In this document: in pieces, positions 63 through 20,000 of the stretch | Layout: the number at the start of each line of letters is the position of its first letter | How positions within the stretch are numbered: position 1 is the stretch's first letter | Source: Craspedostauros australis | Taxonomy: Eukaryota | DNA: 20,000 bases | Reading direction: 5' to 3' | Assembly (NCBI GenBank): GCA_030167865.1 | Contig: JALAGF010000911.1 | Span: 50,721-70,720, forward strand | Position numbers and translations under genes: made by a program | Notes under the pieces: model-generated | The model's input: the letters and a program-made list of their open reading frames with translations, nothing else | The model's database searches: none | What the model was told of the DNA's origin: nothing

Positions 63-2176
63 ATGACGTGCGATCCAACCAGCATGGGCGCAGCCGCCTG
101 CGACGACCTGATACGGGAGTACATCCACATCGACGATGATCCGCAACCCATCCTGGACAAAGACTCGCCTATTTTTAGTGAATTTGGCACCAGCAATTCG
201 TACGATGACTTGGACGATGATGGCCGCTTCAGCTCCATGGAGTACGGAGCTTCGGAAGGGGTCGAGCAAGGTTATGGCCATGGCAACAAGACGAGCGAGC
301 ACGGGGACACGATAGATGACACCTTCTACTCCGAGCCCACCTACGGCAGCAACGGGGTCATCAAGAGCGTCGAGCCCCAGCCCGAACGCGGCGGACGTCG
401 TCGCAAGTTTGCCTTCCTGTGGCTCCTTGTCGTGGGCGCCATCATCGGTGGAGCATTCGCCATTGCGGCCAGAGCAAGGAGGGAGGACGATGATGCACCT
501 GACACGACCGGCAACGAAGCCGTGCAGCAGGATCGCGACATCATCATCACGGCAAGCCCAACTTCCGCGCCTGTTCAGAAGGAGGAGGAGACAGCTGAGC
601 CAACCGCAATGCCAAGCGCAGCAACTGGCGCACCAACTGTGAGTCCCATTGAGGGCACCACGCATGTGAGTCCTGATATTTGATACTCTGCTCACAAACT
701 GCCGCAGACGCAAGCGCAATGCCATGCAATGCAATGCAAACTGCGTGCTTGAGGGGCGACACTTTGCGAGCATAGCCCATCTTGCGGAGAGCATCGGAGA
801 GTTGGAAACAACAGAACAATCCTCATCATTCATCGCTCTTCATTTGTCACTCACACCGTCTCAATCCACATTTGTAGCCGACTCTGCGGCCCACTCTTTC
901 ACCAACTTCGCAACCATCTCCGACACCAATGTCACAAACAACTTCACAACCGACTTCACAACCAACCTCGCAGCCGACGTCTCAGCCGACGTCTCAGCCA
1001 ACGCTGAATCCGAGCTCGAAACTGACCTCTGCACCAACAGAACAGCAAGTCCTCTCGACGTCTTCGCCAACAGCCGCTCCATCAAAGGCAACACCGGTGC
1101 CAACGACGGAACCAACGTCTTTCCCAACGCGCTCTGGTTCCAGAATCACCGTGGGTGTGTACTACTACGCGAATTACGGTCAGAATGGTCTCTTCACGCC
1201 AGACGACTACTTGAGGGATAGCATTGGCCAACGGCCGACGCTGGGCGATTACAGCAGCAACGATCCTGAAACCGTCAGACGGCATCTTGAGTGGAGCCGC
1301 AAGGCCAACATCGGCCTCTGGGTCACGTCGTACCGTGGTGAAGGAACCCCGGAGGATGTGGCACTGCAGCAAACCATCTTGAAGCATGAGAACCTCCGCG
1401 ACATGCGGATTGCCCTGATGTACGAATCGATGGAACGAGTGAAGGCGTCCGAGGGATACACCACGCAGCGTGTCAAGAATGACATGCAGTACATGTGCGA
1501 CAACTACTTCAACCGTGCAAACTATTACCGCATCGATGGCCGGCCGATCGTCGTCATCGCCCTCACCAGAGTTCTGGAACGTCACGAGGCGCTGGCTGAT
1601 GTGATCTCGATCATGCGATCCATCGATGGCTGCGACCCCTACCTCATCGGCGATCATGCCTTCCAGCTGGCTCCGGATATCGGCCACCAATCCGTAGCAT
1701 TCGACTCCCTGGACGCCATCACGAACCATGACGTGTACGGTGGCATGATGACTGTGGATAACTACGTTGGCGAGGACACCATTGAGAACTACTACTTGGA
1801 GCAGTCCAATTGGAAGCTGCACACTGTGCTGAGCAAGATCGGCTTCATCCCGTCCGTCACGCCCGGCTTCAACAACCGCGCATTCGACCCGCAGTCTTCC
1901 CTCACGCCCATGGCACGCAAGCTGACTTCCCTCTCGGACTCTGGCAGCACGTTCCGTTTCGCGCTGGGAGAAGCCCGGCGGCAGGTGACACAAGGCACCA
2001 ACAACCTCCTGCTGGTCAACTCTTTCAATCATTGGATCGACGACACGCAGATCGAGCCGGTCACCGGCGCGCCGTTATCGGGTGTCGAAAGCTTGACGCA
2101 GGGGATCGACTACGAGGCGTACCGCGAGCAGTACTTGAACATTCTGAATGAACGCACGGAAGGGCAGATGCGTTGA
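63..2176 (+). CDS. GH99-like type II membrane protein, copy 1 (2 exons: 63..638 or 63..665, then 878..2176; 624 or 633 aa), catalytic motif altered
   Basis: Exon 1 encodes an acidic tail, RRRK and a TM segment (FAFLWLLVVGAIIGGAFAIAA). GTGAGT donors at 639 and 666 are both phase 0. A CTCAC branch-like site at 850 and a TAG acceptor at 875-877 join in frame to the PTSQ-repeat stalk. The catalytic domain follows (VGVYYY, PTLGDYSS, HLEWSRKANIGLWVTS, IDGRP, PGFNN, NSFNHWIDDTQIEP). Confidence 0.85.
639..877 (+). other. Intron of copy 1 (donor at 639, alternatively 666)
   Basis: GTGAGT...CTCAC...TTTGTAG; removal joins ORFs 63..683 and 929..2176 in phase 0. Confidence 0.7.
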
Positions 2177-2969
2177 AAAACGAATCAATCGGGAAGAGGA
2201 GGGGAGGGAAGGGAATTGCATGTGCTTCTTTTGTTTTGAAGTGAAGGATTGAATTTGTAATGCATTGTCCTACTACTACAAATACCAACAGTAGAATAGG
2301 CACACCATTGAAACAACAACAACAACCAATGTCACCCGCGATGGAATACTCCCCTCCAGAGTGCTATCGGCATGGCACCGTACCTATTTTATTTCATCCC
2401 GCCAAGTGAGGACACCACGGAACATCATTGGATGTTTGGACCCTGAGTGAAGCGTTTTCCCATGTGTTCGGATGGTGTGAAGTGGAGCATTGTGCGTAGT
2501 CGAGCTGCGTGTGTGATGATACCAAATGATGAACACAACGGGTTCCATTGGCAAAAAATGCGAAGAGATGACAACCAATGATGATTCATGCGAAGTCGCC
2601 CTTGTGGCTTTGCGGTCGGTTGGGGTCGTGTATAATAGCTGCTGCCTTAATTAGATTCGTCGCCATGGCGCCCATCGAGAGACAGGTGGTCATAATTTTG
2701 GTGACAAATTTGTGAACATCCATGTGGAACATGGCGACGATTGTGGATGTGATCAATGGCCGTTGAAGATGGCGGCGTGCGCAGTGGTGGCGATTGTGTG
2801 AGCAGAGCAGAGCGCAGTGGAAGAGAGTGAGGTGGGGCAGAGTGCTCACCCTCACACTCACACTCATACTCACACTCAACCATTGGATACTCTGCTCTAA
2901 TCCATTGGAATAACAGAGCAACATACTACTCTAGTGGTACTATACTCTGCCTCATTGAACATCACCACG

Positions 2970-5207
2970 ATGGCGTCGTTCTCGTTCTTCTCCCAATCGG
3001 AAGATGGCTTGAATTCTCCCAACGCCAACTCGCACAACGACGAGGAGGAGGGTCGCGGCATGCACATTCACTATGATGCGGCCGAGATTGTGAGGATCCG
3101 CAATGGCGCATCGGCATTCGAAGAAGACGAATGGAGCCGCGAAGATGGTGCTCCCAGCTTCGACGACCGCAGTGAAACCAACGTGGCCATCGAAACGACC
3201 ATCGCCAAGCCCAATCCCAACGACATCTCCTGCGATACGTACGTGATGTACGCCAAGCATGTTCCTGACGATGATGATAAGAGCGAAGGCGACATCGTTT
3301 GCGGGTTCTTCTGTTGCTGCTGCACGTCGAGGTTCCTCAAATGGATGCTTCTCGTCCTGCTTCTGGCAGCAATCGCCACGGGGGTCACCGTCGGTGTGCT
3401 GCATCGTCGGAACTCGGTTTCTAAAACCACAGTCGCTGGGGCAAGGGGCGGCATCGAAGAGCCAGCGGGAGAGGATAACAGCAACACTGACAGCAATGGC
3501 AGTAATGACAACGATAACGTTGGTGGCATTGACACCAACACTGACAATAGTGACAATGAGGGAGAGGGGAATGGGGAAGATGGTGCCAATGATGGCAAGG
3601 GGGAGGGGAAAGACAAGGATCCCGACGACGCAAACACCGATCAGCCAACATTGAGCCCTACGAGCACGGGCACAACAAGTTCTGGTTCGCGGGAAGTGTC
3701 ATCCGTTCCAACAAGTGCCCCAACAAATAATCCAACGGCGTTGCCAACCAGCAATCCGACGACGATGCCAACGAAGCGACCGACAACGAGTCCAACCAGT
3801 CAACCGACGGCCACACCAACGCAGCGGCCAACATCCATGCCAACGAGTTCACCCACCACGAGGCCAACCAGTCAACCGACGGCCACACCAACGCAGCGGC
3901 CAACATCCATGCCAACGAGTTCACCCACCACGAGGCCGACGGCTTTCAAATCGTCCGGGGCGGAGCTAACCGTCGGCGTGTACTACTACCCCTGGCATGG
4001 CAACAACTTTCATGGCAGACGCTACTTGCGACAATACTTGCAACCTCGGCATTTTCCTGAGCTGGGCGAGTACGACGACTCCAAACCGGAGACCGTCACG
4101 CAGCATCTCAAATGGAGCCGGCAGGCTAACGTCAATCTGTGGGTCACCAGCTGGTGGGGTCCCGACAGCCGCGAAGATAAGACGACGAAGGACGTCATTT
4201 TGCCGCACGAGGATCTGGGGGATATGAAGATCGCCTTGCATTACGAGACGACCGGCCGCATGAAGGACAACCTGGGTGGGTACAACACGGACAGGGCCTT
4301 CGATGATATCATCTACATGTGCGACAACTACTTCTCCCATCCCAACTACTACCACATCGATGGCCGCCCGGTCCTCGTCCTCTACATCACGCGATGGGTC
4401 GAGAACCGGGGGTTGCTCTCCGAATTGATCAGCCAGATGCGGGCGGCCGGGGAGTACTGCGGCACGGGTGTCTACCTCATCGGCGATCACGTCTTCAACT
4501 CGCCACCTCCGTCGGACGGACCCTACTTGCCCCTTCTCTACCTCGACGGCGTCACCAATTACGACGTCTACGGCGCCATGCGCAGTCCAACGTACTATGC
4601 TGGCGAAGATGTCGTCAACGCCTACTTTGACGTGCAGAACCAATGGCGCACGCGAGCCCGCGAACACAACTGCGCCTACATTCCGGCCGTCAGTCCTGGC
4701 TTCAATGACAGAGGCGTGCGGTTGGAGGTGGATCATCAGCCGCTGTCGAGGCGGTTGACGCCAGATTCCGAGCCAGGCAGCCTCTTCCGGTACGCATTGC
4801 GGAAGGCGAGACACACGGTCGATGAGACTTCGGACAACTTGATTCTGATCAACTCTTTCAATGGTGAGTCTCGATGGGCTTTGTTGGTTTCAATGTCTTC
4901 GGTGTCGTGTGGAATCGTCTGCTTGTGTGGATAGATAGTACTTTCTTCTATTGTTTGCTACGTCACACAACAGGTAATACGTATGACTGCATACTCACAC
5001 ATAATGGACATTCATTGATATCTTGGCCTTGCACACGTCCTGTTTTCTCCTATTTTTGCAGAATGGCATGAGGACAGTCAGATCGAGCCTGTTGCCGTTG
5101 GTCCAGCCAGCGCCAGCGAACCATTCGACATGACAAAGGGTGTTGAGTACGAGGCTTATGGAGAGCTGTACTTGAACATCTTGCGTGACGAGACGGTGAC
5201 TGAATAA
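2970..5207 (+). CDS. GH99-like type II membrane protein, copy 2 (exons 2970..4863 and 5062..5207; 679 aa)
   Basis: ATG at 2970, long acidic tail, Cys cluster, TM (WMLLVLLLAAIATGVTVGVL), D/N/G-rich then PTxx stalk. Motifs YYYPWHG, PELGEYDDS, TSWWG, YFSHPNYYHIDGRP, PGFNDRG. Splicing G|AA restores NSFNEWHEDSQIEP. Stop TAA at 5205-5207. Confidence 0.92.
3792..3935 (+). repeat. Perfect 72-bp tandem duplication in the copy 2 stalk (PTSQPTATPTQRPTSMPTSSPTTR x2)
   Basis: 3792-3863 and 3864-3935 are identical, including third codon positions. Confidence 0.95.
4864..5061 (+). other. Phase-1 intron of copy 2 (198 nt)
   Basis: AATG|GTGAGT...TATTTTTGCAG|AATGGCATGAGGAC. Confidence 0.92.
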
Positions 5208-5497: not shown

Positions 5498-7022
5498 TCA
5501 CATGTCAAAGCAAGCTCCATCAGGCACCGTGCAAGATCGGAGAATGTCGAGGTACAGTTCTCCGTATCCATCGTAGGAGATACCGCGGGTGACGGATCCG
5601 GGCGAGGTTGTCACTTCGCCAGATGTCGGTTCAATCTGGGTATCCTCATGCCATTCTACTAGTATCAATGTCCACAACGTGTTGTGTTGGCAGTATTGAA
5701 AAGAGACGGCAATAGTCGTAGAACAGATTCGAGTGATGTGGAGTGGCGTAGAGTATGGTACATACACGCGCAGCACGCAAGAGCCGTTTGGTGAGAGACT
5801 GTGCGAGAAAGGAGACATGCCATACCATGCACACTGTTCCATTGCTTCGCACAACGAACTTACCGTTGAATGAATTGATCATGAGAATGTTGTTTGCGGT
5901 CGAATCCGCCAGCTTCGTGGCTCTCGACAGTGTGGCACGGAACAAGCTCCCCTCCTCCATCTGCGCCGTGAGACGACGGGACAGCGGATGATGGTCTGCA
6001 TCTGGCCGTACACCGAGATCGTTGAATCCTGGAGATGCCGCCGGAATGTAGCTGCAATTGTGCGCCAGCGCTTGTGCCTTCCACTGCAGCTGTCTGTCGT
6101 AGTACTTGTCCAGGGCTTCCAAGCCGGCGTACGATTCTTGGTAGGTCATGCCACCGTAGACATCGTACGTCGTAACCGCATCCAGGATGTTGAATGGACC
6201 GTATTCCCCATCCTCCGAAGGTGGAGCGCGGAATGTGTGGTCGCCGACGATGTAGATCTTCTTACCGCATGCTTCTGTCACGCCAGCTCTCATCTCATCA
6301 ACGACTGTTGACAGCTTGTCCACTCGCCACAGCACGCGTGATAGGTAGACGAAGAGGACTGGCCTGCCATCGATCGTGAGGTAGTTGGGATGATCGAAGT
6401 ACTCGGCGCACATGAATTTCAAGTCAGGACGGATGCGCTGCGTGCTGTAGTCCTCCGACTTCTTCACACGGTTGGTGGTCTCGTAGAACAGAGCGATCTT
6501 GTGATCTTGCAGATCTTCGTGCGCCAGAATGGTGTTGCGTATCGTGGTGTCTTCTCGCTCTCCTTCGCCCCACCAACTCGTCACCCAGAGCCCGATGTTT
6601 GCCTGCCGACTCCAGACAAGGTGCTGCGTCACGGTCTCGGGCTTCGAGTCATCGTATTCGCCCAGTGTGGGTGCTTGGAGGGGGTCCAGCTGTTCGCGCA
6701 GGTATCCCTGACCGCGATGGAAATCATCCGAATGCCAGGGGTAGTAGTAGGCGCCGACGAGTATGTCGGGCGAGATCGTCGCGTTCCATCTGAAGTTGTC
6801 CAACCAGGCCTCAATGCTATCGGCGCGCTTCTGATTCCTCGCTTCAACGTCGACATCTTCAACTCTCTTGCCGCTGGCTTCGGCGGCCGCGGTGTTGCGT
6901 TGAGTCACGACGTAGGCAGCTACCGACCCGAAGATCACCACGCATACCATCAGGGTGACCCCCGACCAAAACAACCGCTTGCGACCGCTCTTGCGCTCGT
7001 GACTTCCCATGGCACCCAACAT
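5498..7022 (-). CDS. GH99-like type II membrane protein, copy 3 (exons 7022..5864 and 5655..5498; 438 aa; very short stalk)
   Basis: ATG at 7022 gives MLGAMGSHERKSGRKR, which aligns with the N-termini of copies 4 and 5. TM segment, YYYPWH, PTLGEYDDS, TSWWG, YFDHPNYLTIDGRP, PGFNDLG, spliced NSFNEWHEDTQIEP. Confidence 0.9.
5656..5863 (-). other. Phase-1 intron of copy 3 (208 nt) with TAGTAG tandem acceptor
   Basis: Minus strand AACG|GTAAGT...ATACTAGTAG|AATGGCATGAG. Confidence 0.88.
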
Positions 7023-7582
7023 GTTGCAGTCGTTCTCAGAAAGTCTCTTCACTTGCTGGCTTCTTCGCTTGATACCCAGCTCGTTTGGTTGCTTGTGCGA
7101 TGTTTTCCTGTCCTGTTCTTGTCACAAAAATGTGACGATCCGGGATTTCTCACGCTGGTGAACAATGGGAGAAATGGAACGATTTTGTCGACGCGTGTCC
7201 GCACATCCACGATCATGTCGCAGAGTTTCTCTTTTCTTCGAATGCGATCAGTTTGGCGAAAGAACAAGTGTCATTGAGACATATACCGTTATTTAGCGTT
7301 ATTTCGGCGCCATTTCCTTTGCGTTTCATGTCTGAGTCGTGGATCGTCTCAATCATGAGTGTGTTTTTCTTCACTCACAAAATCGAGGCAGCGGAAACAC
7401 TTTTCGATCTGTTGTGCCGAAGTCACACCTCCCGACTCTTCATGGGCATGGTGCAAGGACGACGGAATAGAGTAAGTAAAGCACTGTGCTTCTATGTGCT
7501 TTTATTTTCTAAATTGTATGGTATATCACCAACCATTCTCAATTCGGCGGGACTGTTCTATGGTGCGATTCTATTCCTCTCT

Positions 7583-10111
7583 TCAGTACGTTGTCGACGG
7601 CGTCGACGAATTGAAGCACGTTGAGCCACCCAACGTGCACTCTCGGAGGATGTCAAGGTACAGCTCTCCGTACCCGTCGTATTCGATGCCACGGGTGAGT
7701 TCGAAAGGCGATGTGGTCACATTTCCGGCCGTTGGTTCGATCTGGGTATCCTCATGCCATTCTGTGGTTGTCGTGGCCATCGTTGTTGTTGTTGTTGGTG
7801 GTGGTGGTGGTGTGCGAATGAGCAGAGCAAGGCAGATTTTGCAGTTGAGAAGCTGTGGACACAAACCGAACGCGGCAAGCAGACAAGTAGATCAAGCACA
7901 TGCTTGTGCATCAGCCAAGCGCTCGTTCGTTTCCGCCAATCCATGTACATACGCAGGGTTACACTTACCATTGAATGAATTGACCATGAGGATGTGCTTC
8001 GATGCCTTATTCGTCATCTTCATGGCCCTCGAAAGGGCAGCGCGGAGCAGGGTGCCCTCGTCCATCTCTGGAGTGAGACGGCGTGACAGTGGCGGATGGG
8101 CGGCTTCGAGCCGGACACCCAGGTCGTTGAATCCTGGAGTCACGCCGGGGATGTAAGTGCAGTTGTGCGTATCGGCCAACGCCATCCACCTCAGCTGCCT
8201 GATGTAGTACTTGTCGACATTCTTGATGCCGGCGTAGTACTCCTGTTGAGTCATGCCGCCGTAGACGTCGTATGACGTTGCAGCATCCAGGATGTTGAAC
8301 GCGCCGTATTCCAAGTAAAGCAACGGCGGTCCGCGGAAGGTGTGGTCGCCGACGACGTACAGGTCTTTGCCGCATTTGGCCTTGACGGTTTCTTTCATCT
8401 TGGCAACGACGGCCCCGAGGGCTCCAACCTGCCACAGCACTCGGCTGAGGTAGATGAAGAGCACGGGCCGGTCGTCGATCGTGAGGTAGTTGGGGTGGTC
8501 GAAGAAGTTCTCGCACATGAACTCCATGTCGGGACCGACACGCTGGATGGTGTAGTTCTCTGCGTGCTTCACGCGGCTTGTGGTTTCGTAGAGGAGAGAG
8601 ATCTTGTGATCCCCGAGGTCTTCGTGAGGGAGGATGGTGTTGCGGATGGTCCAATCGTCGCGTCCACCTTCGCCCCACCAGCTGGTAACCCACAGCCCGA
8701 TGTTCGCCTGCCGACTCCACGCAAGGTGCTGCGCCACGGTCTCGGGCTTGGAGTCGTCGTACTCACCCAGCGTGGGGAGTTGGATTGGATCCAGCTGGTG
8801 GCGCAAGTAAGTCTGGCCGTAGTGGAAGTTGTCCCCGTGCCACGGATAGTAGTATGCGCCAACCAACATGTCGGGTGAGATGGTGGTATCCCAGTTAAAA
8901 TTCTTCAAGAAGTTCTCAACTTTCTCCCCGCGCGCCCGATTCTCTTCGGTATTGGGATTGTTGTTTCCATTGCTGTTGCCATCGTTTTCTCCTCCAGCAC
9001 CATTGGAATCGTCGACAGCATCATCAGCATCGTCAGCATCGGTTGCATCGTTTGCATCATCGACGTCGTTTTCATCTGTGTCATTGGCATCGCTGGTATC
9101 ATCGACATCTTCGTCAGCATCGGCATCTTCGTCAGCATCTGTTGTGTTGTTGGCGGCATCCACATCTTCGTCCGCGTCTGTTGTATTGTTGGCATCATCG
9201 ATGTCGACGTCGGTAGTGTTGGCACCGTCGGTATCGGTTGCGTTGTTGGCATCATCGACATCCACGTCGGTAGTGTTGTTACTGTCTGTGTTAGTTGTGT
9301 TGGTGCCATCGACGTCCACATCGGTAGTGTTGGCACCGTCTGCGTCAGTTGTGTTGGTGCCATCGATGTCCGCATCGGTAGTGTTGGCACCGTCGGTATC
9401 GGTTGTGTTGTTGGCATCATCGATGTCGACGTCGGTAGTGTTGGCACCATCGATATCGGTTGCGTTGTTGGCACCATCGATATCTTCGTCGGAATCAGTA
9501 GAGTTGTTGGCACCGTTGGTATCATCGCCAGCATCGATGTCTTCGTCAGCGTCAGTAGAGTTGCTGGAGCCATTGGTATCATCAACAGCATCGCTGTCTT
9601 CGTCAGTATTGTCCGTGACGCCCGAACCATCCATGCTGTTGATAATCTCATCTGTGTCTTCGTCTTCATCTTTGTCGTCGGTGTTGCCATTGCTACCATC
9701 GTTGACATCATCCGCATCACTTCCGCCATCACTTCCGCTGTCACCGTTGTTGCCGTCAGTACCGTCCTCCGTTCCAGAGCCATCCGTGCTGTTCTTGGTA
9801 CCATCTTCATCAGTATCCTCAACGTCGCCACTGGCACCGCCATTGGCATCATCAACAACCACCTCATCTGTGGTGCTGTCGTTTCCTGTATCGCCATTAA
9901 TGTCCACGCCAGGGATATCCCTGGCGACGCTCTCGATGTCATTGTCATCCAGAACAACATCGGCAAGAGAACCCTTTCCGTTATCTTGCTGCGACACCAC
10001 GATGCCGGCGACCACTCCGATGAGCACAATTAAAACCACCAGGATGAGAGCCAAACAAAGCACCCCCCTGCGCTTAGTTCTGCGTTCGTCGCCTCCGACC
10101 GGACCTGCCAT
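7583..10111 (-). CDS. GH99-like type II membrane protein, copy 4 (exons 10111..7969 and 7761..7583; 773 aa; long Asp/Asn/Thr-rich stalk)
   Basis: MAGPVGGDERRTKRR, TM segment, ~350-aa acidic repeat stalk, YYYPWHGD, PTLGEYDDS, TSWWG, PGFNDLG, spliced NSFNEWHEDTQIEP; TGA at 7585-7583. Confidence 0.92.
7762..7968 (-). other. Phase-1 intron of copy 4 (207 nt) containing a (CAC)n(CAA)n microsatellite
   Basis: Minus strand AATG|GTAAGT...CCACAG|AATGGCATGAG; GTT/GGT triplet run at ~7782-7812 on +. Confidence 0.9.
9050..9600 (-). repeat. Degenerate coding tandem repeats (DxDGANTT / DxDxDDANNTT) in the copy 4 stalk
   Basis: Recurring blocks such as GTTGGCATCATCGATGTCGACGTCGGTAGTGTTGGCACC (~9188 and ~9410) and repeated NxT peptides in the translation. 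Confidence 0.85.
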
Positions 10112-11267: not shown

Positions 11268-12982
11268 TCATGATGTCGCATTGAAACATACTGAGTTGGG
11301 AGTTGTGCACTCTCGGAGGATGTCAAGATACAGCTCTCCGTACCCGTCGTATTCGACCCCACGGGTGAGAAGCTCGGGTGATGTGGTCACACCGCCGGTT
11401 GTAGGTTCAATCTGGGTATCCTCATGCCATTCTGCTCGGAGAACGTACAGAAGTTTGGTTTCATATCATGTCATGCCATGCCATTTGTTGATGTTGTTGT
11501 TGTGAATAGGATTCGGGATTGCAAATCAGAGAACGCAGTGTGAGGATTGAGTGCGTGTGCTCCGTCGACCTCTTCAATGGTGTGCTTCGTGCTTCACATT
11601 CATCCAGTACATCTTCGGCTTGTACTGCGTCACTTACCATTGAACGAGTTGATCATGATCATGTTGCGCGCTGCTGGATCCGTCATCTTCGTGGCCCTCG
11701 ATAGACCCGCGCGGAACAATGTACCCTCCTCCATCTCCGGGGTGAGGCGGCGTGACAGCGGAGGATGGTCTGCTTCGAGCCGGACTCCGAGATCGTTGAA
11801 GCCGGGCGATGCGGCGGGAATGTAAGTACAATTGTGGGCATCGGCCAATGCCTTCCACTTGAGCTGCCTGTTGCTGTAGTATTTGTCCACGGCTTCGATA
11901 CCGGCATAATGCTGCTGTTGCGTCATGCCGCCGTAGACATCGTAGGATGTTGCCGCATCCAGGATGTCGAACGCGCCGTATTCCTCATCCAGCGATGGTG
12001 GTCCGCGAAAGGTGTGATCTCCGACGACGTAGAGGTCTTTGCCACATGTGGCCTTGACGGTCGCTTTCATCTCGGCCACGACGGGACCCAATGCGTCAAC
12101 TTGCCACAGCACACGAGAGAGGTAGACGAAGAGGACTGGTCTGCCATCGATTGTGAGGTAGTTGGAATGATTGAAGTACTCGGCACACATGAACTCCATG
12201 TCAGGACCGACCCGCTGGATGGTGTAGTTCTCCGATCTCTTCACGCGGCTTGTCGTTTCGTAGAAGAGCGCGATCTTGTGATCCCCGAGATGCTGATGGG
12301 GCAGGATGGTGTTGCGAATCGTGGTGTCGTCACGTCCGCCTTCGCCCCACCAGCTGGTCACCCACAGCCCGATGTTCGCCTGCCGACTCCACGCAAGGTG
12401 CTGCGCCACGATCCTGGGATCGGAATCGTCGTACTCCCCCAGCGTGGGAAGTTGGATCGGATCCAGCTGCTCACGCAAGTAGCTCTGACCATAGTGGAAG
12501 TCATCTCCGTGCCAAGGATAGTAGTATGTGCCGACGAGCATGTCCGATGCGACCGTGATGTTCCAATCAAAGTTGTCCAACCACTCCTGGATCTCCTCAG
12601 CTCGTTTCTGCTTCGCATCTTCATCCGAGTCAGCATCGTTGCTGTTGTTGCTGTTGTTGCTGTTGTCGTTACTACCGCCTCCATCGCCGCTTCCATCATC
12701 GCTGCCGTTGCCTCCGGCTGCGCCTGCGTCGTCGGCACTATCCTTCTTGCCAGCACCATCATCGCTGTCCTTCGCACCATTCGCAGCCTCGCCACCATTC
12801 TGATCACTGTCGCTATCACCACGAGCAGCATCCGACGCAGAACCATTGCCATCCTTGCCTCGCGTGACAACGATGCCGATCACCAATCCAAAGATGATGA
12901 TGAGGACCACCAGCGCAATGGCCGCCCAAAGCAACCGCCTGCGCTTCTTCTTGCGTTCGTACGCTCCAGCTGAACCCGCCAT
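11268..12982 (-). CDS. GH99-like type II membrane protein, copy 5 (exons 12982..11638 and 11431..11268; 502 aa)
   Basis: MAGSAGAYERKKKRRR, TM segment, G/D/N-rich stalk, YYYPWHGD, PTLGEYDDS, TSWWG, PGFNDLG. Exon 2 read by hand: EWHEDTQIEPTTGGVTTSPELLTRGVEYDGYGELYLDILRECTTPNSVCFNATS*. Confidence 0.92.
11432..11637 (-). other. Phase-1 intron of copy 5 (206 nt)
   Basis: Minus strand AATG|GTAAGT...CCGAGCAG|AATGGCATGAG. Confidence 0.9.
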
Positions 12983-13214
12983 GTCTGCACTTCGTTATTC
13001 TCCGTGGTGCATGTGCGGCAGAGAGGCGTCTGCTTTCCTTCGCTCCGCTCTGCTATACTCCACGGATACTCTGCAAGTGCTGTTGCGGCGACAGTATGGT
13101 ATAGAACAGAACAGGAGAGTACGGTGAGAAGGACGGTAGTGCTGCACGATCTTTTGCCTGCATCGACAATTCGTTGTTGTGTGTTTGTCCCTCCTTTCAT
13201 GATTGTGTCAAAGA

Positions 13215-13459
13215 TGTGATGATCGCAGAGCGAGCAAAGAATGCGCCATGTTGCCAAAGTTGTCATCGTTCCGATTCATCACTGTTGTCAACACAAACTT
13301 TCCCAACAACGTCCATTCGTGTTTGCGATTTCTCGGAAGTACATTTCTGTCAGCGTCTGTCCTTCTGTCCTTCCATGTGGGTGGAGGAACAATGACACAC
13401 ACACACAAGGTAACCTCATAAATTCGGTTCCTTCTTCTTTTGTGCAAGGGATTATCACA
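13215..13459 (+). repeat. Putative 5' LTR (245 bp)
   Basis: Starts TGTGATGATC and ends GATTATCACA: TG...CA termini with a 9/10 terminal inverted repeat. It ends 75 nt before the gag ATG and is followed directly by a PBS-like GGTTTTGGCC. No second copy is available in the window to confirm it. Confidence 0.7.
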
Positions 13460-13470
13460 GGTTTTGGCCT
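13460..13470 (+). promoter_or_regulatory. Putative primer-binding site
   Basis: GGTTTTGGCC abuts the LTR CA and resembles the half-tRNAiMet PBS of Drosophila copia (GGTTATGGGCC); the match is imperfect. Confidence 0.4.
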
Positions 13471-13533
13471 TTCTTTCAAGGCTTCGCAGCATTGCAACAA
13501 CAACTCTTCCTCTTCCACCTCCTCTTCTTCAAG

Positions 13534-15315
13534 ATGGTGGCCACCCGGTCCGCTACGTCTTCAACCGACGGTGACGGGTCCAGCCCACCTCCACCTCGTG
13601 TTGGTGAGGGCAACAACGATGTCCCGTCGCTTGCTGCCCGCAATGGCGCGCCCACGGCGTTTGACCCTCGAGCCGAAGCACGGCGCATTCTTCGAGTCGC
13701 GTCTGTTCCCGCGGATGCCATCCTCATGGTACTGCCCCTTTTTGAAAGTGAAACCCAACCAGCCTCGTTCTACGGTCGCCTCAACCACGTACTCAATCTT
13801 GACACTGCAGGCATCAGCCAGATGCTGGAGGTGCACTCCATAGAAATCTCGGGCCCTGCCAAGTACTGGCTTGTCACGTTCGCCAAATGGTGGCGAAGCA
13901 CGGGTTTTGGAGCGGGCTTCGACTGGTCGTCGTTCGACAGTGCGTACTACAATGGTGGCGTCCCCATCGCCTCTACCACTGCATTCTCTGACGACACCAC
14001 CATCACTGACAACCACGACAACAACGGCAATGAGACCACTGTCCGCATCGGTGTGCGCCGTGAGACACGCGCCAACGCAGGCGCCCAGACCATGACAGGA
14101 CGCACTGTGGTGGCTGAAGGCGGTCGCGATCGCGGCGCCACACGCTCCGAGCGGCGTGACACCAGCGCATTCTCCAGAAGCTACTTCGAGGATGTCATCA
14201 ACGACGCATCCTCGGCTGACAGCTCTGGGAAGCCACGTGCGCTGTACGGCGCGGCCCTCGCACCACATCCGCAATGGAAAGTGGACGCTCAGCGCAACGT
14301 CGTTGTCCAAGCGGAGAACTTTGGCAAGGCTGAGGTCGCACGTCTCTCCGACGGTACGTACCAAGGCATCAAGCATTGGTACGAGCGGCTGCATGTCATC
14401 GCCGATACATACGGCATAGAGCTGATTCCGTTCAGCCAATTCGACCCGAAGTACGTGGTGTTTCCCAATCGCCCGTCCCACAAGGTCACCGCCATGAACA
14501 CTGCGCTCAAGATGAAGTTCATGGCCACTGGAAACGTCGACGCTGAAGCCCCGTGGCTCCAGCTGTTCTACAAGCACCACATGGTGCACAACGCCACTGG
14601 GAACCTCGCGGCGTTCGACTTCATCCATCAAGTGCTGGTGCATGCGGAGCAACAACGAGGTAACGCTGGGCTCCCACAGGTGCCAACGTTGTCAAGTGGC
14701 ACCAGTGTGGTGGACTTTGCATCCCGTCTGATGGACTACATGCAGGATCATGGGTCCCAGGGTGGGTTCACCGACCGACAAGCAGCTATACATTTTCTGC
14801 AAGAAGTCAGGGGACACGGCCTTGACGTGGGCCGCTTGCAGCTCGATTTGGACGCGATCCCACCTGGCGACAGCCTGCCAAGCACGTTCGGTGTGATGGC
14901 CATGACTACGGAAGTCCAACGAGTCAACAAGGGTGATGCACGTGTGCACAAGCTCACGAATCCATACTCCAAGAGAGGCCCAGACGAGAAGGCAACTAAG
15001 CCTACCGCAGGCAGAGACAAGACGACCACAGACAATCCTTTCCGACAACCGGTGCCTGGCGCCCTCTGTGCGGCATGCAACCGGAAAGGTCATGAGGCCA
15101 CATCGTGCATATACCTTGCTCGGTTCGCCGTGATGTCCGACTTCCACCAGAAGAACGGGGAACTCGCCAACAAGCTCGCAGCACACCTCAAGGCATACTA
15201 CTCCAAGGATGATCGCAAGGCTGCAGTGCGAAAAATCGTTGCAGCCGGCGCTGATGAGGACTCCGATGAGGCACTGATGGCGTGGATGGTCTTCCACGAA
15301 CAACATTTTCCGTAA
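13534..15315 (+). CDS. gag: Retrotransposon Gag (593 aa) with a C-terminal zinc knuckle
   Basis: ATG at 13534 (MVATRS); CAACNRKGHEATSC fits C-x2-C-x4-H-x4-C at 15067-15108; lies between the LTR and pol. Confidence 0.88.
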   Translation: MVATRSATSSTDGDGSSPPPPRVGEGNNDVPSLAARNGAPTAFDPRAEARRILRVASVPADAILMVLPLFESETQPASFYGRLNHVLNLDTAGISQMLEVHSIEISGPAKYWLVTFAKWWRSTGFGAGFDWSSFDSAYYNGGVPIASTTAFSDDTTITDNHDNNGNETTVRIGVRRETRANAGAQTMTGRTVVAEGGRDRGATRSERRDTSAFSRSYFEDVINDASSADSSGKPRALYGAALAPHPQWKVDAQRNVVVQAENFGKAEVARLSDGTYQGIKHWYERLHVIADTYGIELIPFSQFDPKYVVFPNRPSHKVTAMNTALKMKFMATGNVDAEAPWLQLFYKHHMVHNATGNLAAFDFIHQVLVHAEQQRGNAGLPQVPTLSSGTSVVDFASRLMDYMQDHGSQGGFTDRQAAIHFLQEVRGHGLDVGRLQLDLDAIPPGDSLPSTFGVMAMTTEVQRVNKGDARVHKLTNPYSKRGPDEKATKPTAGRDKTTTDNPFRQPVPGALCAACNRKGHEATSCIYLARFAVMSDFHQKNGELANKLAAHLKAYYSKDDRKAAVRKIVAAGADEDSDEALMAWMVFHEQHFP

Positions 15316-18300
15316 GCCGGCCGCCCGCAATCCAGGGTGGTGAACGGCTTTTATTGGGAAACTGCGGGCCCATGGCCGCAGCTCCAGCAAGCAAGGAGCT
15401 CCGGGCGCCGCCGATGATGCAGGCCGAACACGTGTCCACGGCAGGACCCGCGCCCGTCGCTCACGCGTGTAGGATGACGTGGGACCCCGGGGATCATCAT
15501 CCTAGCTTCCTTCTCGCAGACGAGACTCAAGCCAATCACTCATCGACGGTTCACTTGGTCGGTGTTCGACGGAGCCAGCAAGGTCAGTGTGACCTGGGAG
15601 CGAACGTCTCGGTCACTAACAATCGCAACATTCTGCATGGGGTCACAACACTCGGTGTTCCTCTGCGCGTCTCTGGCATGGACTCGTCCAGCCCGGACGT
15701 GGTATGTCGAGAGATTGGCACGGTGCACCTCCCGGTGACGGGGCTTCGACAGGTGAACGCGAGGGTACACTACAGCCCTCGGGTGAGCGGGACCATCTTG
15801 TCCCCGCAAGCCATCTGTGATCATGAGAGAGAGTTCCACTCCTTTGTCATCGACATACGTCCAGAGCGATCAAGCCTCGCGTTTCGAGACAGGTCGGATG
15901 CTGTCCTTGCTCGTGCGGCGCTCGTACAACACAATGGGCTCTTCTACTTTGAACCGCTGAGCTCCGAGAGTGCTGTGGTGCAGTCAACTCAGGCGGGAGA
16001 GTCCATGCTCAAGTACGAGCTGTGGCATCAACGACTCGGGCACCCGGGCGCCACTCAGATGCAGCACATACAGGGTGCGGCAGACGGCGTGCCAGACGGC
16101 CTCCATCGTTGTTCGCATCCGCACCGGTACTGTCCCATTTGCGTGGAAGCGCATGCGGTGAGGCCGGCGCGAGGGCCAACAGTTTCAACAGATTCACTAC
16201 GCCCGGGGTCCAGATTTCACGTGGATTTCGGGTTCATGCGCGCGAGTTCCAATGCTTACGGCGTGGGACGCAAGGGCCAGCGCGTGGTGCGGTCGTTTGA
16301 CGGGTGCACAGCGTATCTCGTCGTCGTCGATGCGAAGACAAGGTACTCGTGGGTTTTTCCAACGGTCGGCAAGAAGCCACCCGTGGACATCCTCAGCCAA
16401 CATCTGAAAAGATTTGGCTTACCTGATGGATACCGGAGCATCCGGATTGATCATGGTGGGGAGCTCTATGGGTCGCAGCAGGTACTGCAGGCCGTGGCGG
16501 ACGCTGGATACTGTGTGGAGCCCACTGGTGCAGGTGTACATCACCGCAACGGCAAGGTGGAACGTCTAAATCGGACATTCTCGGTGCAGGTACGAGCGCT
16601 TCTTTATGGCGCAGGGCTGCCTCCGCAGTACTGGTCAGCGGCACTCACTCATGCGGTGTACCTGAAGAACCGTCTTTGGCATTCTGCCATTGACATGTCC
16701 CCGTACGAGGCATGGAATGGTCACAAACCCAACATCGCACATCTTCGCGTGTTTGGTGCTCGCGTACTTGAACGGAAGCCCAACATGCCGGCTGCAAAGC
16801 TTGACAAGCACACCTACACGGGTGTGTTCTTGGGTTTCAGCGGCGATGGTGCCAACATGCGGTATCTCGACATCCTCTCGGGCGTGGTCAAGACAGGGGC
16901 AACATTCTCCTTCGATGAGTCACACTACTCCCTGGCGAGCCGCCCGCCCGCTGCGCAGTTCCTGTACAACCTCGGGATGCGTGAGATGGAGGGTGCGGTC
17001 AGCAACGAACCCCGGGCAACGGCAGAAACCTCCGGAACACCCGTTGTGCCCGCGATAGTCCCGCGTGCCATGGTGAAGACGCCGAAGGAGGCGCTGATGA
17101 CCCAGCTACCGTTTGGAGAGGTGGTGTCGATGCCGGCGCATGCATCAGCAGCGACGGTGGAGACGCCCGCGCGCGCAGGATCGGAGTGGTCCATACGGGA
17201 CGTCGCAACGATCGAGGTCTCTGATGATCCGTTTGTCTTCTCTTTTGGACAGGAGTGGAACGTCGGCAATGATCATGAATACGCGGGCATGGTTCTACAA
17301 GAGGACCCACAACGTCGCCGCGTGCAGCTGGTGGACATCGCTGTCGGCACGGCTGCTCGACACATTCCACGATGGAGAAGTCGGCTGCGCATGGCGTACC
17401 TGCTCCGCGTTGGAGGCGTGGAGGTCCGTACCGAGACAGATGTGAAGGACGCGATCTCTGAGGCGCGCAAGGCTGGACAAGGCGCCGTTGAGGCGACGTT
17501 CGCCCATGACGATGTTCGAAATGCAATGGGCGCCACAGGTCTCATGCATCTGTACTTTGATCAGTGGAGGGATATTCGCGACATACGGCATCAAGCGCGA
17601 GATGCCGCACGAAGCACGCGTGCGGTCCTCAAGCTCAAGCGATCCGACCTCGCCGCAAGTGCCGAGTGGGAGCTGTGGAGAGCGGCGGAACACAAGCAAC
17701 TGGACCAGTACGAGTCTCAGGGCATGTTTGGTGCTCCGACGTCCATGCAACCAGGCATGCTGGCATTCCACTGGGTTTGGATCTACGTCCTGAAGGAGAA
17801 CCCCACTGAAACAAGACGCAAAGCGCGAACGGCGTGTGATGGGTCACCTCGAGCGGGACAAGCCAAGATCACCGGGCAGACGTACACGCCTACTCCAGAT
17901 CAGACGGATATGAGGCTCTTTGTGGCCTTGGCGGCCACAGCAGGAATGACTCTGTACAGCGCCGACGTGAGCAATGCATTCGCAGAGGCCGACAGAGGCG
18001 AACAGGAGTACTTCATGCGGGTGGATAAGCAGTTCCAGGATTGGTGGGCGCAGAAAGGACGAGCGCCGATTCCCTATGGATGTGTCATCCCAGTGTTGAA
18101 GAACCTACAGGGACATCCGGAAGCTCCACGTCAGTGGGCGAAACACATCGACAGGATTCTCCAAGACCTTGGATTCATCCCGACCACGCATGCAAAATGC
18201 CTATACCGACGATCAATTCAGGGGAGGTGCATGTATCTTATCCGGCAGGTCGACGACATCGCAGTTGCGACTGCTCGGCGGGCAGATTTCGACAGAGTTT

Positions 18301-19394
18301 GTGATGAAATCGACCAACGGCTATCGTCTCCGCTCAAGCGCTTCTATCAAGTCGTGCATTTCAATGGGCTGGATTTCGTGCAAACCAGGCACTTCATCCA
18401 CATCCACGCTCAAACTTACCTGGAAAAGGTGTTCGAGCGGCACTCGTGGCAGGATCTCAACCCACAACAGATGCCGATGCAGAGCAGTAACTCGTACATG
18501 CGGGAGCTTGACGAAGAGCCGGCATTGAACGAACAGGAGAAACGCGTTGCTGAAGCCAAGCGATTTCGATACAGACAGGCGATGGGGGAACTCATCTGGC
18601 CAGCGGTAACGTGCCGCCCGGATATAGCGTTCCCCGTGGTGAAGCTTTCACAGTTCTCAAATCGCCCTGGGGTGAAACACTACGAAGCCGCCAAGAAGGT
18701 GTTTCGATACCTCAAGAAGGACACAAGGGCAGGGCTAACATTCTGGCGACAGACACCGGCGGAAGGGTTACCAGAGGAGCCACCGCCGGCGCGAGCCAGT
18801 GAGCCCCACGATGACGTCCATGAGGATGCCATTTCTCGTTTTGCACCTGTGGAGCTCTACGGGTATGCCGACAGTGACTGGGCAATGGACACGACACATC
18901 GCAGGTCCATCTCAGGCGTCACATTCAAGTTAGCCGGGGCTGCAGTCGCATGGAAATGCAGGGTGCAAACCGTGGTTGCGCACTCCTCGACGGAGGCGGA
19001 GCTGATATGCGCTGCGGATGCGGGCAGGATGGCCATGTGTCTCCGCGCAATCCTCTCCGAAATTGGGCATGTACAGACCACGCCAACAGTACTATACGAG
19101 GACAATAGAGGGGCGGTCCTGGTGTCTAATGCGGGACAATCCACCAAGCACACTCGTCACATCGACATAAAAGTGTTTGCACTGCAGGACTGGGTGGATC
19201 AAGACTTTCTGGTCCTTCAGCAGATCGCGTCCGATCTCAACGCGGCGGACGCGGAAACAAAACAGGTGATGGCGAGGCTCTTCCTTCGTCACATGGATAA
19301 CATTACTGGGCGGTTGATGCCGCTCTGGGCCTCAGCGCGAAGTGCAAGCCGGGACAACGCACCGGCGGTCCAAGTCCGTGAGTCACACGGGTGA
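15282..19394 (+). CDS. pol: Copia Pol polyprotein (protease, GAG-pre-integrase/HHCC, integrase, PDZ-like insert, RT, RNase H), probably entered by a -1 frameshift near 15306
   Basis: DLGAN protease-like motif (15591); LWHQRLGH...CPIC; integrase FHVDFG / RIDHGGE / NGKVER; RT KARTACDG, ADVSNAF, LQGHPEA, RQVDD; RNaseH YADSDWA, STEAE, YEDN, RHIDIK, NAAD. The 1370-codon frame is uninterrupted. Confidence 0.95.
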   Translation: MDGLPRTTFSVSRPPAIQGGERLLLGNCGPMAAAPASKELRAPPMMQAEHVSTAGPAPVAHACRMTWDPGDHHPSFLLADETQANHSSTVHLVGVRRSQQGQCDLGANVSVTNNRNILHGVTTLGVPLRVSGMDSSSPDVVCREIGTVHLPVTGLRQVNARVHYSPRVSGTILSPQAICDHEREFHSFVIDIRPERSSLAFRDRSDAVLARAALVQHNGLFYFEPLSSESAVVQSTQAGESMLKYELWHQRLGHPGATQMQHIQGAADGVPDGLHRCSHPHRYCPICVEAHAVRPARGPTVSTDSLRPGSRFHVDFGFMRASSNAYGVGRKGQRVVRSFDGCTAYLVVVDAKTRYSWVFPTVGKKPPVDILSQHLKRFGLPDGYRSIRIDHGGELYGSQQVLQAVADAGYCVEPTGAGVHHRNGKVERLNRTFSVQVRALLYGAGLPPQYWSAALTHAVYLKNRLWHSAIDMSPYEAWNGHKPNIAHLRVFGARVLERKPNMPAAKLDKHTYTGVFLGFSGDGANMRYLDILSGVVKTGATFSFDESHYSLASRPPAAQFLYNLGMREMEGAVSNEPRATAETSGTPVVPAIVPRAMVKTPKEALMTQLPFGEVVSMPAHASAATVETPARAGSEWSIRDVATIEVSDDPFVFSFGQEWNVGNDHEYAGMVLQEDPQRRRVQLVDIAVGTAARHIPRWRSRLRMAYLLRVGGVEVRTETDVKDAISEARKAGQGAVEATFAHDDVRNAMGATGLMHLYFDQWRDIRDIRHQARDAARSTRAVLKLKRSDLAASAEWELWRAAEHKQLDQYESQGMFGAPTSMQPGMLAFHWVWIYVLKENPTETRRKARTACDGSPRAGQAKITGQTYTPTPDQTDMRLFVALAATAGMTLYSADVSNAFAEADRGEQEYFMRVDKQFQDWWAQKGRAPIPYGCVIPVLKNLQGHPEAPRQWAKHIDRILQDLGFIPTTHAKCLYRRSIQGRCMYLIRQVDDIAVATARRADFDRVCDEIDQRLSSPLKRFYQVVHFNGLDFVQTRHFIHIHAQTYLEKVFERHSWQDLNPQQMPMQSSNSYMRELDEEPALNEQEKRVAEAKRFRYRQAMGELIWPAVTCRPDIAFPVVKLSQFSNRPGVKHYEAAKKVFRYLKKDTRAGLTFWRQTPAEGLPEEPPPARASEPHDDVHEDAISRFAPVELYGYADSDWAMDTTHRRSISGVTFKLAGAAVAWKCRVQTVVAHSSTEAELICAADAGRMAMCLRAILSEIGHVQTTPTVLYEDNRGAVLVSNAGQSTKHTRHIDIKVFALQDWVDQDFLVLQQIASDLNAADAETKQVMARLFLRHMDNITGRLMPLWASARSASRDNAPAVQVRESHG
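15304..15350 (+). promoter_or_regulatory. Candidate -1 ribosomal frameshift signal (U-run plus 13-bp stem-loop)
   Basis: CAT TTT CCG TAA at the end of gag; pol is in the -1 frame. Stem AAGCCG-GCCGCCC / GGGTGGT-(GAA bulge)-CGGCTT with an 8-nt loop. Confidence 0.65.
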
Positions 19395-19397
19395 GCG

Positions 19398-19533
19398 CCG
19401 ACACCGCGGTTAGCGCGGTCGGAGGCCAGTTCTGCGGTTAGCGCGGATACAACGGCGTTTCGCGATTAGCGCGAACGGTGAGGCGGTCCCACGATTAGCG
19501 TGGGTTCTGACACACCCCGCGAATAGCGCGGGG
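19398..19533. repeat. Array of five periodic hairpins with a conserved RWTAG loop
   Basis: accgcg-GTTAG-cgcggt, tctgcg-GTTAG-cgcgga, ttcgcg-ATTAG-cgcgaa, cccacg-ATTAG-cgtggg, ccccgcg-AATAG-cgcgggg; loops start at 19409, 19437, 19465, 19494 and 19522. Confidence 0.92.
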
Positions 19534-19609
19534 ACTTCTCTTGTGTTTGCTTCTTCTTTTCGGTCCACAAAGCGCCAGTCTAGTGCCTCAAACAAACGGA
19601 CCCCAAAAA

Positions 19610-19877
19610 TTGGCGATTATTGGCGATTATTGGCTACAGTTGGCTACAGATTTTGGATCAGTTTTTCCCAAACTCCGCCTTCGTTTNATAGACACTCAAT
19701 CCAACATCTCTTCACATCTACGTAAACTTAAGAGCCAGGGCTATCCAGGCAAGTGTTAACATTATAATGTTGTTACTACCATCTCATCGATCTTTTTGTG
19801 TTTGTTGACCCCCTTGGTGTGGTTTTGCCTTCGGACGAAGGACGGACCGGGTTTTCATTGGCTACATTTGGCTACAA
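19610..19877 (+). repeat. Two clusters of 10-bp TTGGC-headed tandem repeats
   Basis: TTGGCGATTA x2 and TTGGCTACAG x2 at 19610-19649; TTGGCTACAT and TTGGCTACAA at 19858-19877. Confidence 0.8.
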
Positions 19878-20000
19878 GTAGGATTCTACAGGGGTCTGGT
19901 AGGATCTGGCCTCTTGTTTCGAGAAATTCGACCCTCCATCTTTGAAGTCTCCGCGCTGAGCATTCTTTGGCTCAATCTGTACAATAGATATCATTTCAGA

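Follow-up and report, generated by a model that had tools for sequence, protein, structure and literature searches.

Craspedostauros australis contig JALAGF010000911.1 carries, in a window of 20,000 nt (the whole stretch of DNA analysed here), a Ty1/copia-type retrotransposon with the open reading frames (ORFs) gag and pol. Directly 3' of the pol stop codon, between 19403 and 19533, five small hairpins (U1 to U5) follow each other on the + strand. Their stems comprise 6, 6, 6, 6 and 7 bp, and their five-base loops, which all conform to RWTAG, begin 28, 28, 29 and 28 nt apart. A preliminary description of the sequence had reported these hairpins, their loops, spacings and stems, and all of them were recovered at the same place. 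Every loop of U1 to U5 is closed by C-G and G-C pairs, and in four of the five units it is enclosed by GCG...CGC. The motif CG-N-W-TAG-CG has five matches on both strands of the window, all within the array. A scan for phased hairpins revealed a sixth member, U0, which is located exactly 28 nt upstream of U1 within the last six pol codons and extends the array to 19375-19533. Its loop deviates from RWTAG. The features of the element are compiled in Table 1.

Table 1. Coordinates of the retrotransposon ORFs, the hairpins and their surroundings (window positions; LTR, long terminal repeat; energies in kcal/mol; pair probabilities for RNA in a 538-nt context, + strand / - strand)
Feature	Position	Strand	Arm / loop / arm or remark	Loop start	Energy	Pair probability
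gag ORF	13534..15315	+	593 aa; one CCHC zinc knuckle CAACNRKGHEATSC near the C-terminus			
pol ORF	15282..19394	+	1370 aa, Ty1/copia-type; protease, integrase, reverse transcriptase, RNase H			
Hairpin U0	19375..19391	+	TCCGTG / AGTCA / CACGGG	19381	-7.0	0.69 / 0.82
pol stop codon TGA	19392..19394	+	by homology to relatives, expected site of polypurine tract and LTR start			
Hairpin U1	19403..19419	+	ACCGCG / GTTAG / CGCGGT	19409	-10.3	0.66 / 0.76
Hairpin U2	19431..19447	+	TCTGCG / GTTAG / CGCGGA; one T-G (G-U) pair	19437	-8.5 (+), -3.0 (-)	0.04 / 0.44
Hairpin U3	19459..19475	+	TTCGCG / ATTAG / CGCGAA	19465		0.77 / 0.71
Hairpin U4	19488..19504	+	CCCACG / ATTAG / CGTGGG; G-C replaced by an A-T pair, a double-sided change	19494		0.99 / 0.88
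Hairpin U5	19515..19533	+	CCCCGCG / AATAG / CGCGGGG, 7 bp	19522	-14.8	1.0 / 0.89
Pyrimidine-rich 44-nt tail after the array	19536..19579	+				
Four tandem decamers with ATTGG	19609..19649	+	TTGGCGATTA twice and TTGGCTACAG twice			

Pairing, loop and spacing of the hairpins

The six inner pairs of U1 to U5 comprise 30 stem cells, and all 30 of them pair. Double-sided changes are found at three stem pairs (5 cells): C-G was exchanged for U-A or A-U at the first, C-G for U-A at the second and G-C for A-U at the third. One pair shows a wobble (U-G), and U0 contributes a further double-sided change, T-A for C-G. Beyond the stem, each of the two next outer positions is paired in only one of the five units. 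The covariation score amounts to 0.45 compared to 0.19 in shuffles and was reached by none of 500 shuffles. When the partners were slid by 1-3 columns as a control, the scores were much lower. In a neutral simulation that distributed 11 random substitutions over the 60 stem sites, all pairs were kept in 0 of 300,000 trials.

The linkers behave differently from the stems and loops. They are 11-12 nt long and 23-26% identical, which corresponds to the random level, whereas identity between units amounts to 80% in the loops, where T-A-G is invariant, and to 67-73% in the arms. The dissimilarity of the linkers had been pointed out before and is confirmed by these values. A phased chain of six hairpins was never reached in 200 first-order Markov windows; the longest chain comprised two hairpins in 151 of them, three in 37, four in 4 and five in 1. 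Because the units are too unlike, the array is invisible to Tandem Repeats Finder, which gave no report with a score of 30 or more at 19375-19535. With such linkers and no report from this program, it does not qualify as an ordinary minisatellite, the copies of which are alike across the whole unit. The earlier argument that simple slippage did not generate the array therefore holds: the units have diverged and the linkers are randomised, whereas pairing, loop and spacing have been kept.

By these measures, the units are old and diverged, with pairing, three loop bases and spacer length preserved. Within this single copy, pairing, loop and spacing look constrained. The contrast between kept pairing and randomised linkers argues for either a constraint on hairpin structure or a mutation process that restores palindromes. 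The preliminary description had gone further and deduced selection on structure from the compensatory changes. A constraint within the copy is supported, but a palindrome-restoring mutation process fits the pairing, too.

The host element and its relatives

Judged by its domains, the host element is a copia-type gag-pol retrotransposon, in agreement with its previous classification. In pol, RVT_2 and a retroviral SH3-like domain pass the Pfam cut-offs, and the match to a GAG-pre-integrase domain remains just under its cut-off (24.5 vs 28.4 bits). The gag ORF, with its CCHC knuckle, has no Pfam match; weak tblastn matches connect it to upstream ORFs of 13 related loci. Since both ORFs are intact, the array diverged while it was passed on by active copies, and not by decay at its present site. 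The two ORFs overlap by 34 nt (15282-15315), with pol in the -1 frame. By eye, the overlap lacks a canonical X XXY YYZ slippery heptamer; only T TTT C is found two codons before the gag stop. At the other end of pol, U1 starts 8 nt after the TGA, and readthrough would add only 24 codons, ending at the TAG in the loop of hairpin U3 (by eye).

A protein search yielded pol homologues whose C-terminal part is up to 60% identical. The best of them are unnamed metagenome proteins, MMETSP transcripts and a Chaetoceros protein. The earlier assignment to the CoDi elements of diatoms is plausible and goes beyond what these homologues establish, as the only named one among the 120 proteins listed originates from Chaetoceros tenuissimus and is 38% identical. 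Using an alignment of 21 homologous proteins, 80 loci on metagenome contigs with 33-52% pol identity were collected. L006, found in viral contigs, was too distant (29% identity) and left out.

The expectation that related elements would carry the array was not borne out: it is found in none of the 80 loci. The loop motif does not form a cluster in any of them and has ten single occurrences in 0.52 Mb. A pol stop codon is present in 69 loci, and the hairpins found in the 400 nt that follow it did not, on inspection, form such an array. Searches for three phased RCG-RWTAG-CGY units were extended to other contigs. In viral contigs, they gave 5 matches, all of them short-period tandem repeats. In contigs of prokaryote genomes, 33 stretches were found, 29 of which have at least three copies of the motif. 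In 28 of these 29, the stems measure no more than 2-4 bp, and the remaining one, L088, is a palindrome of 13 nt repeated in tandem. With a stricter pattern, in which the loops had to differ, neither the viral nor the prokaryote contigs gave a match.

The relatives indicate what is to be expected at this position. They display a run of 7-8 G, the polypurine tract, directly before the LTR and at or up to ~100 nt after the pol stop. In several of them, the pol ORF extends into the LTR, and the tract often overlaps the end of pol. The LTRs comprise 83-117 bp in the seven loci with a whole pair (L010, L013, L015, L018, L028, L038 and L045); two pairs cut by a contig end measure 123 bp (L017) and 223-229 bp (L050). 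Behind the LTRs, which start with TGTTAG, TGTCAG, TATTAG or similar, lies a primer site of the type GGTTATGAG, presumably complementary to the anticodon arm of initiator tRNA-Met. The stop codon is located 3-228 nt past the conserved pol end, and the distance between pol and LTR varies freely. By homology, the array would occupy the place of the polypurine tract and the LTR U3 start, or a linker that the relatives hardly possess. The loops GTTAG and ATTAG are identical to bases 2-6 of the LTR starts TGTTAG and TATTAG, found in 4 of 12 relatives inspected. Moreover, GGCCAGTTCTG, which comprises linker 1 and the U2 arm, is similar to GCGCCAGTCTAG at 19570-19583. Duplication of the polypurine-tract/LTR junction may have given rise to the units, but these likenesses were judged by eye and could be due to chance.

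Although the array itself does not recur, RNA structure at the junction does. In 43 of 47 relatives, dinucleotide shuffles fold less well than the 250 nt that follow the conserved pol end. The mean z is -1.76 compared to +0.32 in a coding stretch located 1 kb upstream (paired Wilcoxon p = 5e-9). These 47 loci, not all of which are independent, have at least 250 nt at this place; 21 of 68 were dropped because their sequence is too short. Hairpin density in the 69 relatives rises mildly, from ~0.1 per 100 nt in coding sequence to 0.27-0.29 after the stop. The most pronounced case is L010, where seven perfect hairpins of 5-9 bp extend from the pol tail to the polypurine tract (9690-9890, z -6.4). 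None of 200 shuffles was as stable. The L010 hairpins are irregularly spaced, do not share a loop, and have no nucleotide homologue in the other 79 loci. This means, structure at the junction is recurrent in the group, and the regular array is the version of one lineage.

Sequencing run X1, the only run listed (0.05 share of words), was compared with 13000-19680 of the window. Seven short contigs from X1 cover 19580-19680 only, so that the lack of coverage of array and pol says nothing on their absence. This stretch, which includes the four tandem decamers (Table 1), is the only part of the element present in X1, where it occurs in several variants. One of the contigs, record 1, is informative, since its 35 letters upstream of 19580 are unlike the window. 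They encode ...GAVQREGAT-stop, which can be compared by eye with ...PAVQVRESHG-stop in the window. The same letters include a purine run with TG behind it and continue straight into 19580 (also by eye). This points to a sibling element whose pol end and polypurine tract directly adjoin the sequence from 19580 onward. Relative to this sibling, and as suggested by one short contig, the window would carry an extra block, 19403-19579, composed of the array and the 44-nt tail. On this evidence, the array is best regarded as a recent, lineage-specific gain that is not ancestral in the group. Conservation across elements is refuted for relatives at up to 52% identity and is doubtful for the sibling.

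A pair of LTRs was not detected in the window: a direct-repeat search, blastn with word size 7 and Smith-Waterman comparisons gave nothing above shuffles. The best Smith-Waterman score between 12941-13540 and 19381-20000 was 23, with shuffles reaching 20.4 on average and 32 at most. Nothing upstream of gag resembles 19395-20000, and there is no ORF between the array and the window end. Only ~550 nt separate gag from a GH99-like host gene (11633-12982, - strand). By eye, a 113-nt TG...CA stretch at 12982-13094, followed by TGGTATAGAAC, resembles the short LTR of the relatives with its primer site (GGTTATAGAGCC type); a matching 3' copy was not found within the window. If this stretch is the 5' LTR, its 3' counterpart has to be located past the end of the window, and a long internal linker contains the array. 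If instead the above reading of the X1 contig is right, the array begins ~12 nt inside LTR U3 and the 5' LTR of this copy has been lost. Under either reading, the array belongs to the 3' region of the full-length RNA.

Downstream of the tandem decamers, two further ones are located at 19857-19877. They are of the types TTGGCGATTA and TTGGCTACAG/T, and each contains ATTGG (inverted CCAAT). Altogether, 6 such matches compare to 1.0 expected, and they constitute a possible promoter-type motif cluster. A TATAAT-like stretch is found near 19760. A single N at 19687, ~150 nt 3' of the array, makes the assembly uncertain there. On its upstream side, the element adjoins the start of the last of five paralogous GH99-domain genes that are arranged in a row: 929-2173 (+), 2934-4931 (+), 5649-7052 (-), 7895-10111 (-) and the gene at 11633-12982 mentioned above. 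Several of these paralogues have long N-terminal parts of low complexity or PT repeats as well as internal tandem repeats.

Possible functions of the array

The explanation we prefer, with less than even confidence, is that the genomic RNA contains, in its 3' part, a cis-acting platform of hairpins to which protein binds. The six evenly spaced hairpins would act when the stretch is single-stranded, most likely in full-length genomic RNA, which would contain the array regardless of whether it belongs to the pol-LTR linker or to the LTR U3 start. Each hairpin would present a five-base loop, R-W-U-A-G with invariant U-A-G, on a stem that is free to drift as long as it pairs, and the spacers would count for their length only. 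Such an action is favoured because the array is built like a multivalent platform: the asymmetric loop does not vary, the stems are free to change provided that they pair, and spacers of random sequence maintain a fixed distance. When hairpins are recognised by their loops, an asymmetric loop is typically the most conserved part, whereas this would be uncommon in the spacer of a palindromic site in double-stranded form. The putative ligand would most likely be the element's own Gag, which might use its CCHC zinc knuckle to capture the RNA into particles. As a second candidate, a host RNA-binding protein could aid export or stability of the unspliced RNA. The CCHC knuckle of gag, the intact ORFs, the two wobbles on the + strand, the group-wide structure after pol and the hairpin run of L010 count for the RNA platform, as does the precedent of other retroelements with structured RNA transport elements at comparable positions (PMC11379458). 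We infer that selection, not mutational bias, keeps the pairing, that RNA and not a cDNA strand is the active form, and which ligand is bound.

The folding predictions weakly favour the + strand. All five hairpins U1 to U5 were recovered in the minimum-energy fold of the + strand RNA, and the z of the - strand RNA fold is -0.8. The sole real asymmetry between the strands consists in two T-G pairs, in U2 and U0, which are good on + and become C-A on -. Wobbles that work on the - strand only do not occur. The preliminary description had used the G-U pair in U2 to argue for a function in the genomic RNA. It is right that this pair works only on the + strand, but the argument is weak, as folds computed with DNA parameters are equal on both strands.

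Several results weigh against the RNA platform. The array is known from one copy only, and its covariation is that between paralogous units, which could stem from palindrome-restoring template switching. It cannot be essential to the group, as the 80 related loci lack it, and the apparent sibling in X1 seems to do without it as well. The RNA z values are modest (-2.6 for 19385-19550 and -1.9 for 19323-19572), and DNA parameters yield the hairpins equally on both strands, with z values of -4.45 and -4.06. Mean pair probabilities are likewise similar on the two strands, and that of U2 drops to its minimum on the + strand. A scan of 19000-20000 with Rfam 15 gave no family match to the array; the only match in this region is a chance-level long non-coding RNA at 19659-19736 (E = 7.7). 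Because the LTRs of this copy were not found, the place of the array in the transcript is deduced from the relatives. Finally, known retroviral packaging signals sit in the 5' leader and not at the 3' end.

Two further ideas had been raised and were dropped. Dimerisation by kissing loops is not supported, as none of the loops is self-complementary by eye. With 6-bp arms and 5-nt loops, extrusion of cruciforms from duplex DNA is unlikely.

A possible, if doubtful, alternative is a palindromic regulatory repeat that acts at the DNA level in LTR U3 or the linker. The array would then form a CpG island upstream of the promoter, like the RM boxes of plant Sireviruses, and act as enhancer, stress-response module or methylation target. 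This is compatible with its position, since LTRs of the relatives start at or within ~100 nt of the pol stop directly after the tract of 7-8 G, and the purine run and TG of the X1 contig would place the array inside U3. With 26 CpG in 161 nt (observed/expected 1.54), the array exceeds any other part of the window in CpG density, and the six ATTGG decamers and the TATAAT-like stretch are located downstream. According to the passages on RM boxes in two Sirevirus studies, these boxes are palindromic, CpG-cored and clustered in LTR U3 and 5' of env, and their symmetry outlasts their sequence (Bousios et al., 2010, PMC2829016; Bousios et al., 2016, PMC4728375). However, the palindrome centre is described there as least conserved (PMC4728375), whereas the asymmetric 5-nt centre is most conserved here, and the CGG-CCG core is absent. 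Sites for transcription factors would not be expected to show coupled changes in both arms or spacers of constant length. In addition, an array in the LTR should recur in the 5' LTR, but the region upstream of gag contains nothing similar.

A functionless minisatellite in a hypervariable pol-LTR junction, the pairing of which is kept by mutational bias, is unlikely. One arm would be copied from the other by intra-strand template switching or snap-back copying, performed by reverse transcriptase or the replisome. The lineage-specific occurrence of the array, with its absence from the 80 relatives and probably from the sibling, would agree with this, as would the freely varying distance between pol and LTR and the unrelated hairpin run of L010 at the same place. 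Moreover, palindrome variants of Sireviruses have been proposed to be gained and lost through reverse transcription, as outlined in part of Bousios et al. (2016, PMC4728375). Arm copying can explain the pairing, but neither the invariant T-A-G of the loop nor randomised spacers of fixed length, and it would correct the T-G pairs to perfect ones. Furthermore, the intact ORFs argue against long neutral decay in place.

It is very unlikely that the hairpins serve as an aid to reverse transcription. Adjacent to the site of plus-strand priming, they would influence cutting by RNase H, or pausing, at the polypurine tract, or would help strand transfer. In favour of this, the array occupies the position of the relatives' tract, and excess structure is found throughout the group, with z below zero in 43 of 47 loci. 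An inverted repeat around the polypurine-tract/LTR junction with the same proposed role is described, in the part of PMC2829016 that covers it, for Sireviruses and some classic copia elements. However, a G-run or other clear polypurine tract is missing beside the array in this copy, the flanking 44 nt are pyrimidine-rich on the + strand, and priming needs one structure and not six phased ones with a shared loop.

A more specific form of the RNA platform would be an 'MS2-array-like' cassette, which we consider improbable. Successive duplications of the polypurine-tract/LTR junction, followed by selection, would have created six phased hairpins with loops ending in UAG, by which the zinc-knuckle Gag of the element would capture the RNA at its 3' end with high avidity. 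If true, this lineage would have an advantage over its siblings in the competition for particles. For LTR retrotransposons, a packaging signal built from repeats at the 3' terminus is not known to be described, and none was found in the literature searched.

If Gag or a host factor binds the array, it would represent a compact cis-element with six sites, a 5-nt loop and a 28-nt phase that could be dissected by mutations. This would apply to algal copia elements, the RNA biology of which is almost uncharted, and would show how such elements can be gained de novo at the pol-LTR junction. If the array is a regulatory cluster like that of Sireviruses, this design would extend from plants to a distant eukaryotic lineage. 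The over-structured 250 nt after the conserved pol end of 47 relatives may be of wider use. With evidence from one copy and relatives devoid of the array, the case is interesting, not exceptional.

Comparison with known systems

The packaging hairpins of retroviral psi are located in the 5' leader and bound by the zinc knuckles of nucleocapsid (NC). The element in the window also encodes a Gag with a CCHC knuckle, and its hairpin loops expose an unpaired G. In contrast to the array at the 3' end, psi resides at the 5' end and its hairpins are not phased repeats; there is no homology. Packaging stem-loops of single-stranded RNA viruses share a short loop motif on variable stems at defined spacing and constitute a multivalent site for capsid protein, to which binding was shown. 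Dispersed packaging signals of this kind are the subject of PMC5699041 and PMC3593212. Satellite tobacco necrosis virus, as an example, is reported to have five such stem-loops in the 5' 127 nt. The array resembles such signals in that several stem-loops share a loop motif on variable stems. The differences are that those are RNA viruses with a coat protein and another loop motif, whereas here the 3' end of a retrotransposon is concerned.

The RNA transport elements MPMV CTE, IAP RTE, MusD MTE and the MER11-derived element of SERV-K are found between the last ORF and the polypurine tract/LTR, or in U3, as stated in the section of PMC11379458 on these elements. Like the array, they are RNAs with multiple stem-loops that were gained by single lineages. 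Unlike it, they comprise hundreds of nt with complex folds and do not form a regular array (PMC11379458, same section). There is no sequence or Rfam match between them and the array. In the diatom retrotransposon paper PMC2806351, the terms 'hairpin', 'stem-loop', 'PPT' and 'tandem repeat' are absent from the text, supplements aside. A description of a phased, loop-conserved hairpin array at a copia pol stop was not found in the literature searched.

The closest parallel comes from plant Sireviruses, which also belong to Ty1/copia. The statement of the preliminary description that copia elements have no described equivalent has to be revised in view of their palindromic boxes, which are comparable. 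As far as the passages on these boxes go, they are clustered, GC-rich repeats that give rise to CpG islands both in LTR U3 and immediately 5' of env; they are able to adopt hairpin folds, and their symmetry persists when their sequence changes; their function is still unproven (Bousios et al., 2010, PMC2829016; Bousios et al., 2016, PMC4728375). Both systems share a copia-type host, several clustered, short, GC-rich palindromes with predicted hairpins and a CpG island formed by the cluster. The dyad-symmetric repeated motif is found here, too, with six units and complete pairing of the inner stem cells in U1 to U5. The location may be similar: the RM boxes reside in the upstream LTR U3, ahead of the TATA box, and just after pol, 5' of env, and for the array the relatives and the X1 contig suggest a U3 start. 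Differences concern the core, which is CGG-CCG in the RM boxes (PMC2829016) and CGCG here, and the arrangement, in the cited passages irregular clusters with an average of 7.3 boxes per LTR compared to the strict phase of 28-29 nt. Judged by its best homologues, the host lineage here is not a plant Sirevirus, and the array was not seen in both LTRs, with no LTR pair found in the window. Taken together, palindrome arrays are already known from plant copia elements, and the hairpin array downstream of pol is a lineage-specific version of them.

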